64,000 nt of DNA. Source: an uncultured Acidobacteriota bacterium (GTDB taxonomy: Bacteria; Acidobacteriota; Terriglobia; UBA7540). Under the pieces are notes generated by a model. That model made no database searches and was not told where the DNA came from. It saw only the letters and a program-made list of their open reading frames with translations. Each line of letters opens with the position of its first letter. Within the stretch, counting starts at the first letter, position 1. Positions 52,192-59,200 of this stretch are shown here, piece by piece. The stretch covers positions 122,458 through 186,457 of the forward strand of contig CAWELY010000011.1 of assembly GCA_963810005.1 (NCBI GenBank). Direction: 5' to 3'. Both the position numbers and the translations under genes were made by a program.

Positions 52192-53133
52192 TCACTCCTC
52201 CCGCAGGTGCCGTCCCGTGAGGTGCACGAAGACGTCCTCCAGGCTGGCTTGGCGCGTGGTGAGGTGCAGCAAGTGCCCGTTGCGGCTTTGTATGGCCGCG
52301 AGCAGGGCGGGGATGGTTTCATGCGGTTCGCGCACGCTCAGCACCACGCGCCCGTCCTCCTCGTGTACGGCTTCGACGCCGGGCAGCGAGCGCCACGCCT
52401 CCAGCTCGCCGGGGACATTGCCCGTGGCGTCGAATTCCACCATGTGGTGCCCGCCCAAGCGCTCGATCAGCTCGGAGGGCGTTCCGGAGGCGATGGTGAG
52501 GCCGTGGTCGATAATGGCGATGCGATCGCAGAGGCGCTCGGCTTCGTCCATGTAGTGCGTGGTCAGCAGGACGGTGCCGCCGCGCTGCTGGAATTGCCGG
52601 ATAACTTCCCAAAGCTGGCGCCGGCTTTGCGGATCGAGGCCCGTGGTGGGTTCGTCGAGGAACAGGATTTTGGGATTGGCCACCAGCGCCGTGGCCACCG
52701 CCAGCCGCTGTTTTTGCCCGCCGGAAAGTTTGCCCACCCAGGCGTCGGATTTTTCCGTGAGCGCCATCTCCGCCATCACTTCCTCGATCGCGCGCGGGCG
52801 GCGATAAAAACTGGCGAACAACTCCAAGGTTTCGCGCACGGTGAGCTTTTCCGCCAGGCGCGTTTCCTGAAGCGAGATTCCCATCAGCTCGCGGAGTTCG
52901 CGATTGTGCGTCTGCCAGTTATTGCCCAGAATTTCGATTTCGCCGGAAGTGGGTTCCAGCAATCCTTCCAGGATTTCGATGGTGGTGGTCTTGCCCGCCC
53001 CATTGGGGCCCAGCAGGCCGAAGCACTCGCCGGCGTGGATCTCCAGATCGAGCCCGCGAACGGCCTCGACGTTGCCCTCGTAGGTTTTGCGCAGCGCCCG
53101 GCAGCGAACGGCGACGTCCATGGTCGGCATCAT
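52192..53133 (-). CDS. ABC transporter ATP-binding protein (ABC-2/DrrA type); in this sequence it is in frame with the upstream YjbQ-like domain
   Basis: Internal Met MMPTMDVAVRCRALRKTYEG.. with Walker A GPNGAGKTT, LSGGQKQR, FLDEP and TTHY. No stop codon separates it from 53199-53616. Confidence 0.9.
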   Translation of the reverse strand: MMPTMDVAVRCRALRKTYEGNVEAVRGLDLEIHAGECFGLLGPNGAGKTTTIEILEGLLEPTSGEIEILGNNWQTHNRELRELMGISLQETRLAEKLTVRETLELFASFYRRPRAIEEVMAEMALTEKSDAWVGKLSGGQKQRLAVATALVANPKILFLDEPTTGLDPQSRRQLWEVIRQFQQRGGTVLLTTHYMDEAERLCDRIAIIDHGLTIASGTPSELIERLGGHHMVEFDATGNVPGELEAWRSLPGVEAVHEEDGRVVLSVREPHETIPALLAAIQSRNGHLLHLTTRQASLEDVFVHLTGRHLREE

Positions 53134-53198
53134 AGCGGATTGCGGCGCGGGTGTGAACTCACTTGCGCGCGCGGCGAGCCGATCCACCAGGCCGATGC

Positions 53199-53616
53199 CT
53201 AGCTCGCCTACCACAGTAACCACCACCGTGCGCTGGCGTCCGCGCACATCGCATTCGAGGTGGAAGATTTGCTGCCATGTTCCGAGCAGCAGTTTGCCCT
53301 CGGCAATGGGCACCGTCAGCGAGGGGCCCAGCAGGGTGGCCTGCAAATGCGAATGGCCGTTGCCGTCGTGCCACGCCTGCTCGTGGCCGTAGTTGCGGCT
53401 GGGGGGGATGAGCTTGTTGAGGATGGCCGGCAGGTCCTGCTGTAGCCCGGGCTCAAACTCGATGGTGCCGATTGCCGCCGTGCTGCCGACATTGAAAACG
53501 TTGACGGTCCCGGTTTTGATGCTCGACGCGGCGACGGCGGCGGCAACCTGAGAAGTGATGTCGTGCATGTCGCCTTGCCCCGCGGTGCGAAGCGAAAACT
53601 GTTGTTGGTGAACCAT
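53199..53616 (-). CDS. YjbQ/UPF0047-family domain (secondary thiamine-phosphate synthase family), N-terminal part of the 474-aa ORF 52192-53616
   Basis: MVHQQQFSLRTAGQGDMHDITSQV..TGTVNVFNVGSTAAIGTIEFEPGLQQDL..HDGNGHSHLQATLLGPSLTVPI..GTWQQIFHLECD..RTVVVTV is full-length YjbQ-like (~139 aa). Confidence 0.75.
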
Positions 53617-53714
53617 GTCTCTATATTCCCACGATGCTCGAAATCGTGGAACATATTTTTCTCAGCGCAGAATTATCCCGCGCCCCGCGGGATCCTTTTC
53701 ACAGGTTCTTACGA

Positions 53715-54110
53715 TCAGGGGTTCACCGTCAGCGTCGGCTGGCGCAGACTCCTGCTCTTTCGGAGTCTGCGATCCCGAAGGGACTTCTCATAAGTTGAAC
53801 TCAACCCATCCGATCCATGCGGAGAATTGACGCATCCTGCCAATAGTAGAACCTCCAGCTTGACCACGGCCCGTCCCCGGGGGAACTCACCAGCCCGCGC
53901 GTCACCGGGTTGTTGTGCAGAACCCAGCCGACGAGCAGAAAGCCATTCCTGCCGCACCTCGTTCAGTTCGTAGCCCGAAGCTGTAGGTCCGGCTCTTTGG
54001 ACAAAGCCGCGCCGAAAGCGATCGGAGAGGAAAAGGGGCGTGCGGCGATAGGTGCTGGTGGTGATGAATTGGAGTTCGCCGGGACTGTAAACGCGGTGGT
54101 AGAAGGGCAT
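53715..54110 (-). pseudogene. internally deleted REP-associated tyrosine transposase (RAYT) copy
   Basis: The first ~33 residues (MPFYHRVYSPGELQFITTSTYRRTPLFLSDRFRR) match the intact copy at 54792 exactly. The 3' end nucleotides match the RAYT C-terminus (..WQDASILRMDRM). The middle, including the HUH motif, is missing. Confidence 0.75.
53743..53771. repeat. REP hairpin H1 (CGCAGACTCC-loop-GGAGTCTGCG)
   Basis: 10-bp perfect stem within the conserved context GGCTGGCGCAGAC...GTCTGCGATCCCGAAGGGAC. Confidence 0.7.
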
Positions 54111-54168
54111 GGCGCAGGAGAGTATACTCTCGACGGTGCGGGGCCGGAAGAGAACGTCCCTTCGGGAT

Positions 54169-54196
54169 CGCAGACACCAAACGACGGGTGTCTGCG
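54169..54196. repeat. REP hairpin H2 (inverted orientation)
   Basis: GTCCCTTCGGGATCGCAGACACC..GGTGTCTGCGCCAGCC, the reverse complement of the H1/H3 context. Confidence 0.7.
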
Positions 54197-54226
54197 CCAG
54201 CCGGCGAATTCATGAGAGGAAGCCGA

Positions 54227-54568
54227 ATGACGCCTCTGCGTCTTTTCATTTTGTATAACACCGGGATCTTTGCCTACATGGCTTGGCGACTCAATGAAGG
54301 CATGCCAGAGGGAAGAGCCATCAAGATGGGCCTTTTGTTAGCCATCCTGGCCAACCTCGGGGTTGTTGTCCAGTGGTTTCACACAAGGGACAGGGCAAAG
54401 GGTGTAACGCCGGGACGGTCTTCGTCACGCCCGTGGGGGCACGGCTTGCGTTTTGCCTTGATGGTCTTGATCGTCTGGCGGTTGTCTGGCGCCGCCGACC
54501 TCGCCTTCTTTGTGATATATGGATTCGTCATTACAGTAACCTTCTGGCTCTGGGACAGGTTGGCATGA
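54227..54568 (+). CDS. small multi-TM hypothetical membrane protein between the two RAYT copies
   Basis: MTPLRLFILYNTGIFAYMAW..MGLLLAILANLGVVVQWF..LRFALMVLIVWRLSGAADLAFFVIYGFVITVTFWLW has about 4 hydrophobic segments. The track ORF starts at 54188. No family recognised. Confidence 0.4.
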   Translation: MTPLRLFILYNTGIFAYMAWRLNEGMPEGRAIKMGLLLAILANLGVVVQWFHTRDRAKGVTPGRSSSRPWGHGLRFALMVLIVWRLSGAADLAFFVIYGFVITVTFWLWDRLA

Positions 54569-54705
54569 CCCCGCTCGATGAATCCGAGCAGTAATCGCCG
54601 CAGAGCGAGTGGGAGGCCCCAGTAATCTGCAGGGAGGCATGATGGAACCATGCGGGGAACGGGGAAGCGGCTACGCTCAAAGAACTTGGGCAAAAGGCCG
54701 GCTGG

Positions 54706-54733
54706 CGCAGACACCCGCCTTTTGGTGTCTGCG
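54706..54733. repeat. REP hairpin H3
   Basis: GGCTGGCGCAGACACCCGCCTTTTGGTGTCTGCGATCCCGAAGGGAC, in the same orientation as H1. Confidence 0.7.
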
Positions 54734-54791
54734 ATCCCGAAGGGACGTTCTCTTCCGGCCCCGCGCCGTCGAGAGTATACTCTCCTGCGCC

Positions 54792-55343
54792 ATGCCCTTC
54801 TACCACCGCGTTTACAGTCCCGGTGAACTCCAATTCATCACCACCAGCACCTATCGCCGCACGCCACTTTTCCTCTCGGATCGCTTTCGGCGCTGCTTTG
54901 TCCAGAGGCTGGACGAGGTGCGGCAGGAATGGCATTTCCTGCTCGTCGGCTGGGTTCTGATGCCCGAGCATTTTCATATGCTGATCAGGCCCGAGCCCGC
55001 CGAAACCACTCCCCTGATTATGAAGGGGCTCAAGGAGGAATCGGCCAAGCGCATCATCAGAACGCTTCGGGAAAACCTTCAGTATCCTTGGTGCCGGAAG
55101 ACGCTCGCCAGGCTGCGGCTGCCCTCCACGGTTCACGATGAATCCCACTACCGTCTCTGGCAGCGCCGCTTTTACCCCTTCAATGTCTTCTCCGAAAACA
55201 AATTCCAGCAGAAATTGGACTACATGCACAACAACCCGGTGACGCGCGGCCTGGTGAGTTCCCCCGGCGACTGGCCGTGGTCAAGCTGGAGGTTCTACTA
55301 TTGGCAGGATGCGTCAATTCTCCGCATGGATCGGATGCGTTGA
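54792..55343 (+). CDS. REP-associated tyrosine transposase (RAYT, IS200/IS605-like Y1 HUH transposase)
   Basis: 183-aa intact ORF. The HUH motif is in LMPEHFHMLIRP and the catalytic Tyr region is KLDYMHNNPVTRGLV. REP hairpins flank it in inverted orientation. Confidence 0.85.
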   Translation: MPFYHRVYSPGELQFITTSTYRRTPLFLSDRFRRCFVQRLDEVRQEWHFLLVGWVLMPEHFHMLIRPEPAETTPLIMKGLKEESAKRIIRTLRENLQYPWCRKTLARLRLPSTVHDESHYRLWQRRFYPFNVFSENKFQQKLDYMHNNPVTRGLVSSPGDWPWSSWRFYYWQDASILRMDRMR

Positions 55344-55372
55344 GTTCAACTTACGAGAAGTCCCTTCGGGAT

Positions 55373-55400
55373 CGCAGACTCCCAAAGGCAGGAGTCTGCG
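55373..55400. repeat. REP hairpin H4 (inverted orientation)
   Basis: GTCCCTTCGGGATCGCAGACTCCCAAAGGCAGGAGTCTGCGCCAGCC. Confidence 0.7.
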
Positions 55401-55487
55401 CCAGCCGGCCCGCTCGGCGAGTCCCTCATCTGGGGGCGTCATCCAATACCTAACTGCCTTGGGGGCAGCAAATTGGATGTTCGATGA

Positions 55488-55622
55488 GCGGGTAGCGCAG
55501 AGTTGGGCGTAGTTTGCCCTACTCTGCGGTTCGTAAATTGGTAATAGCATTTCTGAGGATGTTGTGAAAAGATGAAAGCCGCAGAGTAGTTCCAAAAGGC
55601 GGAACAACTCTGCGCTACCCGC
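55488..55622. repeat. 135-nt nested inverted repeat (candidate structured RNA or MITE) directly upstream of the WD40-like gene
   Basis: The outer arms are GCGGGTAGCGCAGAGTTG (55488-55505) and CAACTCTGCGCTACCCGC (55605-55622), which are perfect complements. The inner arms are CTACTCTGCGG (55520-55530) and CCGCAGAGTAG (55579-55589). Confidence 0.6.
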
Positions 55623-55627
55623 TAAGG

Positions 55628-56980
55628 ATGTTGACTTTAATGAGCACAGATTCCGCGCCAATACGAATCTCCACAGCAATATGCATGGTCTTGCTCGCGA
55701 TGATCTGCATTTGCTGGTCGGCATCAAGATCGAAGCACCGAGTCCAAGCTCTAAACACCATCCCTCTTCAGCGAGCCCCGAATTTTTCGTCTGATCTCAT
55801 GGACATCAGTAAGCAGGGAACTCTGTTAATCTACCCATGGGGACCGCCGCCGCCGGCCGAGGGTCAGAAAATGGTTTGGGAGCCAAGGCTGCTGCTTTGG
55901 GACTATCAACGGCAGCAGGCAGCCTTGGAGTTCCCAAGTAGGGATGATTTTGTAAACTGGATAAATAAGGCGCCAGGGCTGTCACGGGAGGAATGGCAAT
56001 TCAGGTTCCAAGGGGATGGAAACCGAATTGTGGGCGATCAGACTCCCTGGCTTGTACTGGTCGACCTCAAAACACGAGCCGAAATTGGGCGCGTTCTCCC
56101 GTCAGAATCATACCCGTGGAAAGACTCGCCCATACTGCCTGAAGCAGCGCCGGGCATTAGTATCTGTCATCTCGATATCAATCCGCAAAACGGGTTTGTG
56201 GCAGCCGTGTACAATGTTGGAAAGGGTACCCATCTTTATGTGTATGACAGCGACCTGAAAAGACAGATTGCGAGTTGGGACTTGCCGCGAATGGTAAGGG
56301 ACCTCTGTTGGTCCCCGGATGGAAAGAAGCTCGCAGTCCTCTTCCATGGCAGGTTTGACGAAAACAGGAAACAGGTCAGCATCTACTTCACGACCTCGTC
56401 CCAGGAGCCAGATGTGTGGGTCATGGATCCGCATTCGAGAGAGCCGCTGGTTAAGTTTCGGACGGGGTCCTGTCAAGACCAAATCGCGTTTAGCAAGGAT
56501 GGTAGCCTCATCTACGTGATCAATGATTACCTGTATCAGACTAGCGGGCTCATTTACGAGATCAATGATTACCTGCATCGTTCTCGTGGTCACAACGGTG
56601 CGATTAGGGTTTTCTCCGCTATTTCCGGTGCGCTCGTACAGACGATTACTGCGGGACCGAAAGGAGTCCACTCTGGCTTCAGGCTCTCTCCTGACGGGAG
56701 TCTCATCGCAGCCGATGCCAGCACCTACGTTCCGCTGATTCTGGGATGGAGGGAAATGGAGCAACCCTCTGGGAAAATAGCAAGGGTGGTTCTACTCGAT
56801 GCCAAAACAGGAGATTTGCTGTTCGAGCATCACGAAAGGAGCGAGGGGGACTTATGGGATCCGCTGGGATTGGCTTTTTCCCCAGACGGTCGGCTTCTCT
56901 TTGTAAACTTTCCTGGCGGCGAAAAATATCCTTATCAACGCATTGAAGTCTACTCGATTGATGATGTTAGCGGTCACTGA
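55628..56980 (+). CDS. membrane-anchored beta-propeller (WD40/TolB-like) hypothetical protein
   Basis: 450-aa intact ORF in a lower-GC stretch. N-terminal TM ISTAICMVLLAMICICW. Repeated motifs are of the type CWSPDGKKLAV, AFSKDGSLIYV, RLSPDGSLIAA and AFSPDGRLLFV. An alternative start at 55640 has better SD spacing. Confidence 0.6.
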   Translation: MLTLMSTDSAPIRISTAICMVLLAMICICWSASRSKHRVQALNTIPLQRAPNFSSDLMDISKQGTLLIYPWGPPPPAEGQKMVWEPRLLLWDYQRQQAALEFPSRDDFVNWINKAPGLSREEWQFRFQGDGNRIVGDQTPWLVLVDLKTRAEIGRVLPSESYPWKDSPILPEAAPGISICHLDINPQNGFVAAVYNVGKGTHLYVYDSDLKRQIASWDLPRMVRDLCWSPDGKKLAVLFHGRFDENRKQVSIYFTTSSQEPDVWVMDPHSREPLVKFRTGSCQDQIAFSKDGSLIYVINDYLYQTSGLIYEINDYLHRSRGHNGAIRVFSAISGALVQTITAGPKGVHSGFRLSPDGSLIAADASTYVPLILGWREMEQPSGKIARVVLLDAKTGDLLFEHHERSEGDLWDPLGLAFSPDGRLLFVNFPGGEKYPYQRIEVYSIDDVSGH

Positions 56981-57019
56981 CAGCAGTTCGCCTCAGCGCC
57001 GGCGCGGAGATTTCCTTCG

Positions 57020-57747
57020 ATGGCGTACCCAAGCATTCCAAAACGCGTAGCGGCGGTCAGGGAGGTAATAATCGTGCAACCGGCCGAAGCTGAAGGTCCG
57101 CCGCACTTAGGACTTGGTGATGGATTCTCGCTTCTGGAGATGATGGCGGTGATCGAAGACCAGTGGCGAGTGATTAGTGGCCAGTGGCGAGCAGGAAAGG
57201 CGGAAGAACAGTGGCGATTGACGAGCGGAAAGAGCAGGTCACAGGGAAAAGGTTACGGGGAAGAGAAGCAAGAGAGAATAGTGACAAGTGACGAGCGGAA
57301 ACCCAAAGCTGAACTACAGTGACGGGTGGCAAGTGACGAGTGACGAGCGGAATGACAACTCGCGTGGCTTCTCGCTTCTGGAGATGATGACGGTGATCGA
57401 CGCTGATCCTCATCCTGGCGACCTTCGCCATGCCCATTTACCATACGGTGGTCAGTGCGGGCGCGCGAAGCCACGCTGCGCGAGGACCTCTTCACGCATG
57501 CGCTCCCAGATCGACCGCTTCACCCACGACAACGAGCGCGGCCCCGCCTCACTCGACGAATTGGTGGATAAGGGTTACATGGGGGCCATCCCCACCGACC
57601 CCTTTACCGGCTCGAACGAAACCTGGCAAGTCGAAACCGAGGACACGTCCCTCTCCCTCGATGATTCCGCCCCGCTGGGAATCGTGGACGTCCACAGCGG
57701 CTCGCGAGGACAATTCGCTCGACGGCACGCCCTACAGTAGTTGGTAG
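57020..57747 (+). pseudogene. type II secretion / type IV pilin-like pseudopilin (prepilin N-terminal methylation motif), split by a repeat block and frameshifted
   Basis: The GFSLLEMM(A/T)VI motif occurs twice (57122 and 57366). After the second copy, the restored frames give TLILILATFAMPIYHTVVSA.AREATLREDLFT.MRSQIDRFTHDNERGPASLDELVDKGYMGAIPTDPFTG, which is GspG-like. There are 3 frame changes within ~100 nt. Confidence 0.6.
57157..57365. repeat. GTGGCGAG/GTGACGAG heptamer word block lying between the two 35-nt pilin duplicates
   Basis: CAGTGGCGAGTGATTAGTGGCCAGTGGCGAGCAGG..AGTGACAAGTGACGAGCGG..GTGACGGGTGGCAAGTGACGAGTGACGAGCGG. The same word family is found inside mfd at 33085-33195. Confidence 0.65.
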
Positions 57748-57956
57748 CGCAGGACCCGCTCTCCGGTCCTGCGGCTTTTCCCGCGGTCCGGGGTCCGAAG
57801 TCCGGAGTCGCAAGAACCGGGGCGAGTGGCAAGCAGGAAAGCCAGAAGAACAGGGCCGCGTTCCACGAAAGGGAACTACATCCTTAGCCCGTCAACTGAC
57901 GGATGAAACCGGAGGAAGCCCGGAAAATCAGGTTCCGGCCCGGAAGGGGCCAAACC

Positions 57957-58452
57957 GGTGGCACGGGCGTCTCGCCCGCGAAGGGTCACGGCCAGGATGG
58001 CCGTGCCACAACATTTCCCCGGTGGCACAGGCGTTCCGCCCGTGAAGGGTCACGGCCAGGGCGGCCGTGGCACAACATTTCCCCGGTGGCACGGGCGTCT
58101 CGCCCGCGAGCAGTCACGGCCAGGATGGCCGTGCCACAACATTTCCCCGGTGGCACGGGCGTCTCGCCCGCGAGCAGTCACGGCCAGGATGGCCGTGCCA
58201 CAACATTTCCCCGGTGGCACGGGCGTCTCGCCCGTGAAGGGTCACGGCCAGGACGGCCGCGCCACAACATTTCCCCGGTGGCACGGGCGTCTCGCCCGTG
58301 AAGGGTCACGGCCAGGACGGCCGTGCCACAACATTTCCCCGGTGGCACGGGCGTCCCGCCCGTGAAGGGTCATGGCCAGGACGGCCGTGCCACGTCGGGC
58401 AGGGCCCGTCACCCGAGGCTCTTACGGGCACGGGCAGGATGCCCGTGCCACT
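57957..58452. repeat. tandem array of ~7 units of a 64-bp repeat, plus a degenerate terminal unit
   Basis: Units start at 57957, 58021, 58085, 58149, 58213, 58277 and 58341, an exact 64-nt period. Each unit is GGTGGCACGGGCGTCTCGCCCG.GA.GGTCACGGCCAGGATGGCCGTGCCACAACATTTCCCC with two hairpins. Confidence 0.9.
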
Positions 58453-58632
58453 TCCTCCCGCGTGACACACTTCCCCACATCGGTTATCGACAGTGCGGGG
58501 TGAGGAGATGAATCAATTTGCCGGCTTCGAAAGGTTTTCAATGGCCCGATGTCCCGATGAACCGATGGCCCGATCCCCAGACCCGTGACGAGGGGCAAGG
58601 GCAGAGGGCAGATTCAAGTCTCTGACCTGTAG

Positions 58633-58652
58633 GGGCGCTTCGCGAAGCGCCC
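58633..58652. repeat. perfect 20-nt palindrome GGGCGCTTCGCGAAGCGCCC
   Basis: Read directly. Related to 18571-18600. Confidence 0.6.
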
Positions 58653-59200
58653 TGATCACCCCCGGAGCGCATTTTCGCTGAGGTTAAGGTGCGGAAGTTA
58701 GCGGGCCTTATTGTCCGAAGATGGAAGGGCGGGGCTTTACAGGGTCCGAAAAAACTCGCCTGCGCCGTGTTTCCGGGCTTTTTGTTCTCAATATTGAGGG
58801 AAGCGACATATTATCCCTCGTCCCAATAGGCGGGTACTAAGCACCGATTCGTCCCTTTTCGTGGGCAATCGTGGGTTATCAACCCAAAGGTCCGCTCAAG
58901 GGGTGATTGGAATCGCACTTTGGAGCACCGTATTTCACTTTTAGGCCTGCACTCGCTAGAACCGCTTAGCACCCTCTGGCCACCATCTTCGGGCACCTGC
59001 CCACTGTCCACTTCCTACTTGCCCTTCGAGTGCGCAATGCGCGTTCCCGCCATTCCCTGCAAGGCTTCAGGAGTCCCTTCCGGGGAGTTTCGGTTATCGT
59101 CGGGTTCAGGTGAGATGGCCCGATGACCCGATGGGCCGATTCTCTTCGGCTTCCTTCTGACTATGCAATCCACGGCGAATTGAGTACTCTGAAAGCAGGT

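Follow-up and report, generated by a model that had tools for sequence, protein, structure and literature searches.

A head-to-head pair of RAYT units around a rare membrane-protein gene in an accessory island of a Terriglobia genome

Does a pair of transposase units that encloses a gene carry that gene as cargo, or did the gene and the units come together by separate events? The question is raised by a locus in a 64,000-nt stretch of DNA (hereafter the window; C11:122458-186457) from an uncultured Terriglobia bacterium, in which two copies of one REP-associated tyrosine transposase (RAYT) element, each bounded by repetitive extragenic palindromes (REPs), flank a small membrane-protein gene that we call mem. 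RAYTs are the textbook domesticated bacterial transposase, a single-copy, immobile gene serving a population of REPs or REPINs (doublets of inverted REPs); the likely source of REPINs is seen in the two ends of an autonomous ancestor. The original prediction saw in this locus something resembling a composite element with cargo. We read the two copies, with fair confidence, as separately derived members of one insertion sequence (IS)-like Terriglobia RAYT lineage, set in a strain-specific, repeatedly rearranged accessory island. The host genome (G000) is a 7.03-Mb metagenome-assembled genome (MAG) of 44 contigs, 73% complete, with 59% G+C; all genomes compared are MAGs, and the loci sampled are not independent. 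Labels of the form G0xx denote genomes, Cxx contigs and L0xx fetched RAYT loci.

Layout of the pair and the intact unit

The core features of the locus, in window coordinates, are:

53736-54205, minus strand: mini-RAYT element, non-autonomous, class I (470 bp, both terminal REPs kept, junction 53918/53919)
53736-53784, plus strand: H1, REP at the 3' end of the mini element, outer left end
53967-53993, minus strand: hairpin-like insertion of 27 nt after codon 39 in the RAYT 5' coding region, a sublineage marker
54156-54205, minus strand: H2, REP at the 5' end of the mini element, abutting the mem ribosome-binding region
54227-54568, plus strand: mem, 113 aa, about four transmembrane segments, rare family
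54660-54695, plus strand: glycosyltransferase-like gene remnant, 36 bp, 92% identical to C33:458775-458810, stopping exactly at H3
54697-55410, plus strand: intact REP-RAYT-REP unit (REPtron / TIRtron-like), 714 bp, boundaries conserved in congeners
54697-54746, plus strand: H3, 5' REP of the intact unit
54792-55343, plus strand: RAYT open reading frame (ORF), 183 aa, HUH motif H60-F61-H62, catalytic tyrosine Y144
55360-55410, minus strand: H4, 3' REP of the intact unit, outer right end

The sequence itself, a repeat search and pairwise alignment bear out the predicted head-to-head pair, with one member intact, the other internally deleted, and the 5' ends face to face. The right copy holds a complete RAYT ORF between two inverted REP hairpins; the left copy is inverted and lacks the catalytic core; and between them lies a 491-bp spacer with mem, an ORF that has, as predicted, about four hydrophobic segments. 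Each copy is bracketed by inverted hairpins (H1/H2 and H3/H4), and all four were found in the predicted context GGCTGGCGCAGAC..GTCTGCGATCCCGAAGGGAC. The 5' regions, described at the outset as identical, do form a large inverted repeat (53995-54205/54697-54907, 211 nt, 96%), as does a second pair of arms (53757-53919/55225-55387, 163 nt, 96%), but a match of 96% with indels falls short of identity.

Synteny with six relatives stops at about 53620-53660, only 76-115 bp from H1, where the assembly either crosses a rearrangement breakpoint or contains a chimeric join. The pair could then be an assembly artefact, arising by a chimeric join or by fold-back at the repeat in the MAG. Because the arms have diverged by 4% and carry three indels, they are not a fold-back product; the host contig spans 446 kb; and comparable clusters occur in several independent MAG assemblies, some on contigs of 0.07-1.6 Mb. 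We consider an artefact extremely improbable.

The protein encoded by the intact copy matches Pfam Y1_Tnp (1.6e-9) and the NCBIfam model REP_Tyr_transpos (NF047646; 119.9 bits, cutoff 80), and scores 31.6 bits against the IS200 model NF033573, below its cutoff of 55. Its H60-F61-H62 and Y144 (within YMHNNP) align with H59-M60-H61 and Y115, the active-site residues of E. coli TnpAREP (4ER8; PMC3479197). Comparison with intact congener orthologs gives a dN/dS of 0.11-0.24, indicating purifying selection. With the motifs EHFH, WQ and YMHNNP, a length of 183 aa and no C-terminal extension, the protein fits subclass 2.4 of Quentin et al. (NH[IFV]H / WQ / YIxNNP), equivalent to Group 4 of Bertels (PMC6006769), an assignment by motifs, length and REP features and thus at the level of motifs, not of phylogeny. 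A second intact RAYT of G000, on C15, is 54% identical to that of the window.

The REPs that bound the units are about 50 nt long, with the structure GGCTGG-hairpin-ATCCCGAAGGGAC, and the two REPs of a copy are mutually inverted; the H3 and H4 arms are 92% complementary over 51 nt. H1 to H4 each fold into stems of 10-11 bp (z-scores -1.6 to -2.8), and the stem tops differ in a compensatory manner, ACACC/GGTGT in 5' REPs versus ACTCC/GGAGT in 3' REPs. A wider family of 48 hairpins, GCGCAGAC..GTCTGCG, is spread over the genome with 16 distinct stem tops in which complementarity is kept, and its stems contain on average 2.8 extra paired bases, compared with 0.3 in shuffles. An Rfam scan gave no match at the REPs. 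REPs of the exact unit type number 12 in this 73% complete genome, nearly all beside RAYT remnants, and the commonest 16-mers of the unit ends likewise occur 12 times. Their foot is CTGG (GGCTGG|CGCAGAC), not GT[AG]G, while GTAG-footed REPs are present elsewhere in the genome, as are double-foot REPs.

A CC dinucleotide lies directly outside the CTGG foot in 11 of the 12 copies. In TnpAREP, AG (bases 3-4 of the GTAG foot) is positioned to pair with the CT cleavage dinucleotide, according to a structural model, no complex with the cleavage site having been solved (PMC3479197). Analogous pairing of the GG of the CTGG foot with CC would put cleavage at the observed unit boundary.

A perfect palindrome, GAGAGTATACTCTC, is found at 54118-54131 and again at 54771-54784, about 9 nt 5' of the RAYT start codon. 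Its core, AGTATACT, is invariant in 13 aligned copies and mutated in one pseudogene copy (L079), and the palindrome may serve as a promoter or operator. The idea that it acts as a two-way promoter that also drives mem was dropped, as no sigma-70-like site was found.

Probable separate histories of the left copy and of the two sides of mem

The coding remnant of the left copy runs on the minus strand from 54110 down to 53801. The copy aligns to positions 1-263 and 529-713 of the unit, so that positions 264-528, with the HUH motif and the catalytic tyrosine, are deleted; it also has a 2-nt deletion at codons 47-48. The predicted internal deletion is thus present, but its limits differ from those proposed, with about 56 5' and 38 3' codons retained rather than about 33 and 40.

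Shortened copies of this kind are not confined to the window. An alignment of twelve of them contains at least five junction classes, every one of which lacks the HUH motif; the class I deletion takes Y144 as well. Class I, in which GGGTTCTG is joined to CACAACAACCC, comprises the left copy of the window and copies on three contigs of G021 (C209, C222 and C369), and the junction agrees within 1-3 nt between the window and the G021 copies, which lie at other loci. Class II (234|512) is represented twice on C164 and once on C442 of G001, and on C16 of G008, and single junction classes were found in G018, G004 and G020, with another on C42 of G000. In congeners, many fragments come in pairs, one spanning residues 1 to about 46 and the other residues from about 140 to 183. 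A hairpin-like insertion of 27-38 nt after codon 39 is common to the left copy and the G021 copies on C369 and C222; it occurs together with the class I junction in the G021 loci L041 and L043, and also in L079, a full-length-size, start-mutated G021 copy.

Since both junction and insertion are shared with G021, and the insertion also with L079, the left copy appears to belong to an insertion-bearing sublineage and to have lost its core before reaching its present site. On these sequence comparisons, the left copy is no twin of the right copy that decayed in situ. Such a twin would result from local inverted duplication of one unit, followed by decay of the left copy in place through deletion, insertion and frameshift. 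The arms are indeed each other's nearest relatives (95.8% and 96.7%; any other copy is at most 94%) and the copies lie only 491 bp apart, but G021 copies elsewhere repeat both the junction, to within 1-3 nt, and the hairpin insertion, the latter being present also in a copy of full-length size, and independent origin of an identical insertion and junction is improbable. We regard local duplication as quite unlikely.

Trees of the arms were set aside as lineage evidence because the arms are too short and noisy, and shared indels were used for this reason. Two further ideas about the shortened copies were discarded. A mini-encoded protein does not appear to be a general feature: the reading frame is kept in three of three copies in G001 and in one in G020, while most others, including that of the window, are frameshifted. 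Site-specific breakpoints were suggested by class II and III junctions that follow the foot-like TTGG or CTGG, yet 5' fragments end anywhere between unit positions 98 and 376, which leaves no single breakpoint site, and microhomology explains the junctions equally well. The mini elements, with both REPs kept, could be substrates of RAYT in trans.

The insertion itself is a small hairpin (about GCGGACCT-loop-AGGTCCGC GCTACG) in the window as in L079, L041 and L043, and a similar sequence lies 3' of a RAYT fragment on C42 near 124560. It may represent a third REP-like family.

The gene between the units has a history of its own. mem is a real but rare family without a known domain: G000 encodes two paralogs (35-43% identity), and a search of 1.84 billion representative proteins gave 18 relatives. 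It gave no match in 40 relative genomes or in Pfam, NCBIfam and PADLOC; a word-based protein search recovered only mem itself, and neither relatives of mem nor the H2|mem junction turned up in metagenome scans. The prediction would have been undermined had mem been a conserved core gene with the same neighbours in genomes lacking RAYT; its absence from the 40 relatives shows that it is not a core gene.

Two mem paralogs and one metagenomic homolog, none of which has flanking RAYT units, share a conserved sequence 5' of the ribosome-binding site; from -27 relative to the start codon, H2 stands in place of this sequence in the window. On the other side, the spacer 3' of mem tracks the paralogous region on C33 as far as 54664 and then jumps by 1.18 kb to the glycosyltransferase-like remnant that ends at H3. 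Together with the lineage of the left copy, the replacement at H2 and the remnant at H3 indicate that the two sides of mem record separate events.

These junctions bear directly on the composite reading. As architecture it stands: in the 1675-bp block from H1 to H4, two inverted unit copies bracket a gene, the outer ends H1 and H4 are intact and stand in the mutual orientation of the ends of one unit, and an intact RAYT ORF lies within. In a functional composite transposon, the RAYT would act on H1 and H4 and move the whole block with mem as cargo, and clusters of unit, cargo and unit in G001 that occupy sites empty in G000 (see below) fit this idea. Movement of the block as one is not supported at this locus. 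No second copy of the composite, the spacer or the H2|mem junction was found in G000 or in JGI metagenome contigs; mem is missing from the 40 relatives, its upstream region is truncated by H2, and its paralogs and metagenomic homolog stand without flanking units; and the two units come from different sublineages. A functional composite transposon is therefore, in our judgement, distinctly improbable.

A related arrangement was seen on C42, where a small membrane-protein ORF of about 95 aa (C42:123882-124172; L019 3883-4173, minus strand) lies between two RAYT 5' fragments. It starts beside a 5' REP and is divergent from it, the same geometry as that of mem and the mini element in the window.

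The two units and mem lie in a rearranged region. The segment that adjoins the UPF0047/ABC genes in G005, G001 and G008 sits at C33:401299-406307 in G000; a WD40-like gene at 55628-56980 is absent from the 40 relatives and has a paralog on C42; and about 53660-57000 consists of pieces found again in altered order on C33, C42 and C17. The end of synteny, the absent genes and the shuffled pieces mark about 53660-57000 as a strain-specific rearranged island, and because synteny is broken at about 53660, there is no orthologous empty site for the H1-H4 block. The low G+C content attributed to 53650-57000 holds mainly for 55250-57250 (0.51-0.54), but not for the part with RAYT and mem (0.58-0.59), which equals the genome mean.

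Several observations concern the island and its surroundings. Paralogous accessory islands in shuffled order are found at C33:455000-461200, C42:117800-124500, C17:41600-41950 and 53700-59100 of the window; they share mem, glycosyltransferase-like, methyltransferase-like, WD40/TolB-like and prepilin-like genes together with 64-bp tandem repeats, and the identity between them varies widely (35% to 93%). Comparison with plasmids gave only matches below 30% identity. To the left of the break, a 474-aa UPF0047-ABC ATPase ORF (52192-53616, minus strand) corresponds in relatives to two neighbouring pieces, residues 1-140 and residues 150-474, which a stop often separates, and the fusion seems to be specific to G000 or due to a lost stop codon. 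To the right of the intact unit lies one further repeat element:

55487-55623, plus strand: REPIN-B doublet, 137 bp, of inverted GTAG-footed REPs (GGGTAGCGCAGAG...), preceded by a 76-bp linker from 55411

The 16-mers of this REPIN-like element occur 15 times in the genome. Linker and REPIN-B block follow the RAYT unit in both G000 and G004; REPIN-B is also found 5' of mem paralogs, both on C33 and in one metagenome contig, and cuts off a RAYT fragment at C42:123611.

Distribution of the unit and clusters in relatives

Homology between the window and eleven RAYT loci of relatives is confined to the span from REP to REP, with unrelated flanks, and the same limits at the REP ends were found in 27 acidobacterial loci taken with 6-kb flanks. 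In L069 (a locus of the MFD05512 MAG), the unit is 95.7% and the RAYT ORF 97.4% identical to those of the window, while the flanks match other G000 contigs at 82-89%. The record of this locus, CAWKDC010000001.1, is titled 'uncultured Gammaproteobacteria bacterium'; given a RAYT 97% identical and flanks that match the acidobacterial G000, its taxonomic assignment is probably mistaken.

The unit has left many traces. G000 contains 11 unit-derived segments at 9 loci, and 23 of 24 congeners give RAYT matches, chiefly fragments and as many as 48 in one genome. The deletion form recurs at several loci with its termini kept, as in miniature inverted-repeat transposable elements (MITEs).

Such a distribution was weighed against the ordinary case of a domesticated REPtron, in which a single-copy, vertically inherited RAYT serves its REPs, the nearby pseudogene is there by chance and the other fragments are old debris. 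In keeping with this case, there is one intact copy of the lineage per genome, which is under purifying selection; the flanking 16-mers are found 12 times, a count near the published value of 14 for Group 4 (PMC5581495); and divergence from G006 is about that of the genome background. A single-copy, vertical and immobile gene nevertheless does not fit what the genomes contain, and the original prediction was right to set the locus apart from the usual domesticated RAYT: each genome examined has the unit at a different, non-syntenic place, recurrent derivative classes occupy several loci, nearly all 12 REPs lie beside RAYT fragments and seem not to be dispersed, and G005, among the closest relatives at the ABC-transporter locus left of the pair (~90% nt), has as its best RAYT one of only 62% identity. 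We think an ordinary domesticated REPtron rather unlikely.

Other observations weigh against an IS-like lineage with separately derived members. G000 has only one intact copy of the window lineage, like a classical RAYT. The RAYT identity to G006 (93.4%) is close to that of a housekeeping-like locus (92.9%), which fits vertical descent and rearrangement. No other copy is as close to either arm as the arms are to each other (96%), as would also be expected from local duplication; separate derivation then needs gene conversion or close sublineage kinship within the genome, and this is the main weakness of the argument. No exact-ended empty site or target-site signature was found for the single unit, we infer movement as a unit from distribution only, and the host genome is a MAG that is 73% complete.

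Units also cluster, and the search for further cases of RAYT, cargo and RAYT that the prediction called for shows that such arrangements recur in congeners. At least two units lie within 6 kb at 13 of the 27 loci, including contigs of 0.07-1.6 Mb from independent MAG assemblies, and G000 has two doublets against about 0.02 pairs expected within 1 kb (our own estimate from the segment list). As units cluster, accessory genes are often bracketed by them. Contig 164 of G001 carries, in order, a mini element, a PIN toxin gene with a small upstream ORF (VapBC-like), a mini element, an HNH nuclease pair and a third mini element, and this array fills an intergenic site that measures 150 bp in G000 (C27:36935-37085) and about 250 bp in another MAG. 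On contig 22 of the same genome, a 5.9-kb island between a 3' fragment and a mini element occupies a site of 117 bp in G000 (C14:64538-64655). A further array, on contig 97 of G021, consists of seven co-oriented 5' fragments or minis 0.7-1.7 kb apart, with a Phd-PIN pair, a DUF433 gene, an EamA-like gene with a second small membrane ORF, and orphan secreted proteins in its spacers. In another MAG, a PIN gene and a small adjacent ORF lie between two units.

Among the 19 spacers of up to 3.6 kb, five hold toxin-antitoxin-like cassettes and two hold ordinary genes (a GH3 hydrolase and an SDR), the rest being mostly orphan ORFs; some cassettes recur in G000 at other sites without units. The toxin-antitoxin-like cassettes are a Phd-PIN pair, an HNH nuclease pair, a DUF433 gene and two PIN genes with a small ORF beside each; they sit tightly between units in three MAGs (L038/L087, L086 and L081), and four of the five spacers measure 720-775 bp. 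That an addiction system might retain RAYTs in genomes was a speculation of Bertels and Rainey. The clusters support the idea that units bracket cargo, but not a view on which element moved which: units may home to each other, colonise variable islands or persist beside addiction modules.

A separate observation concerns an uncharacterised multi-copy element of about 2.3 kb (C5:134486-135446; copies on C11, C32, C31, C2, C18, C39 and C1), which several genomes (L070, L072, L084 and L093) have at a distance of a few kb from RAYT units or their remnants.

For the separately derived units of the window, we envisage the following course. The right member would be an autonomous unit, an HUH/Y1 transposase gene between inverted 50-nt REP ends, and the left member a non-autonomous derivative from the sublineage with the hairpin insertion, which lost its core and kept both REP ends. 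By analogy with E. coli TnpAREP, the RAYT would bind the REP hairpin on single-stranded DNA, the bases of the foot would choose the cleavage site, and the enzyme would cut and rejoin there, with its own ends and, in trans, those of deleted derivatives as substrates. mem would have been bracketed through independent arrivals of units on either side, or through rearrangements ending at units, and would not be carried cargo.

A bolder and, to us, doubtful extension is that in this Terriglobia genus RAYT ends (the REP with the first 100-300 nt of the gene) are the joints of a gene-capture system, in which RAYT, working in trans on segments bounded by REPs, builds and shuffles arrays of accessory cassettes and the minis are intermediates on the way from an autonomous IS200-like ancestor to REPINs. 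If true, RAYTs would run the capture of toxin-antitoxin pairs and of orphan membrane and secreted proteins such as mem, in a manner functionally comparable to integrons or ISCR-type elements.

Relation to known elements and to the ancestral RAYT state

The unit shares much with REPtrons, as typified by E. coli YafM (4ER8) and subclass 2.4 of Quentin et al. 2018: the HUH, WQ and YMHNNP motifs fit those of the subclass, the ends are inverted REPs with a 10-bp G+C-rich stem, and the protein of 183 aa lacks a C-terminal extension. Double-foot REPs, a REP-like insertion inside the gene in one sublineage and 16-mer counts (12 versus about 14) add to the likeness; flanking 16-mers of Group 4 RAYTs occur about 14 times per genome (PMC5581495). 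For REPtrons, the literature reports no transposition of the whole unit and a single full-length gene for each REP type (PMC6006769, PMC3116915), and RAYTs in general are portrayed as single-copy genes that cannot mobilise themselves (PMC3116915, PMC5581495). Here, in contrast, the unit is at non-syntenic sites with many fragments and recurrent internal-deletion derivatives, cognate REPs are mostly at RAYT remnants and seem not to be dispersed, and the foot is CTGG instead of GT[AG]G.

The closest described relatives appear to be the TIRtrons, or TIRYT, of Acidobacteria (Di Nocera et al. 2013, PMC3733652). By their description, they resemble the unit in having an acidobacterial RAYT-like gene, terminal inverted repeats (TIRs) of about 50 nt (here 51 nt, 92% complementary) with a self-complementary tract, and a repeat family that is moderately abundant. 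The ends of the unit, read directly, lack the GGGGWSAS motif that many TIRs contain, and the TIRtron paper is without deletion derivatives or cargo clusters (PMC3733652).

IS200/IS605 elements, with their derivatives of the palindrome-associated transposable element (PATE) or MITE type, are similar in their Y1 HUH transposase, hairpin ends, multi-copy remnants and non-autonomous derivatives with both ends, and in several of the clusters found here every unit points the same way. They differ in several respects: the IS200 score of the window protein (31.6) is below the cutoff (55), its Y-motif is the RAYT-type YMHNNP and not Y---Q, its end hairpins are reverse complements where those of IS200/IS605 are on the same strand, tnpB is lacking, and copies are 74-97% identical compared with about 99%.

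Two inverted copies of a mobile unit that bracket a gene recall composite transposons such as Tn5 and Tn10, but no evidence was found that the block moves as one, and the enzyme is an HUH Y1 rather than a DDE transposase. The congener arrays, which alternate short unit repeats with small orphan genes and toxin-antitoxin pairs, likewise recall chromosomal integrons; they differ in the enzyme (HUH Y1 versus tyrosine recombinase), in lacking attI/attC logic and in non-uniform spacer boundaries. A limited literature search found no description of RAYT deletion derivatives or of unit clusters with cargo, nor, within the same limits, of an ancestral autonomous RAYT state.

For genome annotation, RAYT fragments in Acidobacteria flag accessory regions that are prone to rearrangement. 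For the family, the lineage of the window shows traits of the ancestral autonomous state: a discrete unit at varied sites, repeated loss of the core with the ends kept, and apparently few dispersed REPs. If its mobility is confirmed, it would offer a natural system for how RAYTs move DNA and how REPINs arise.

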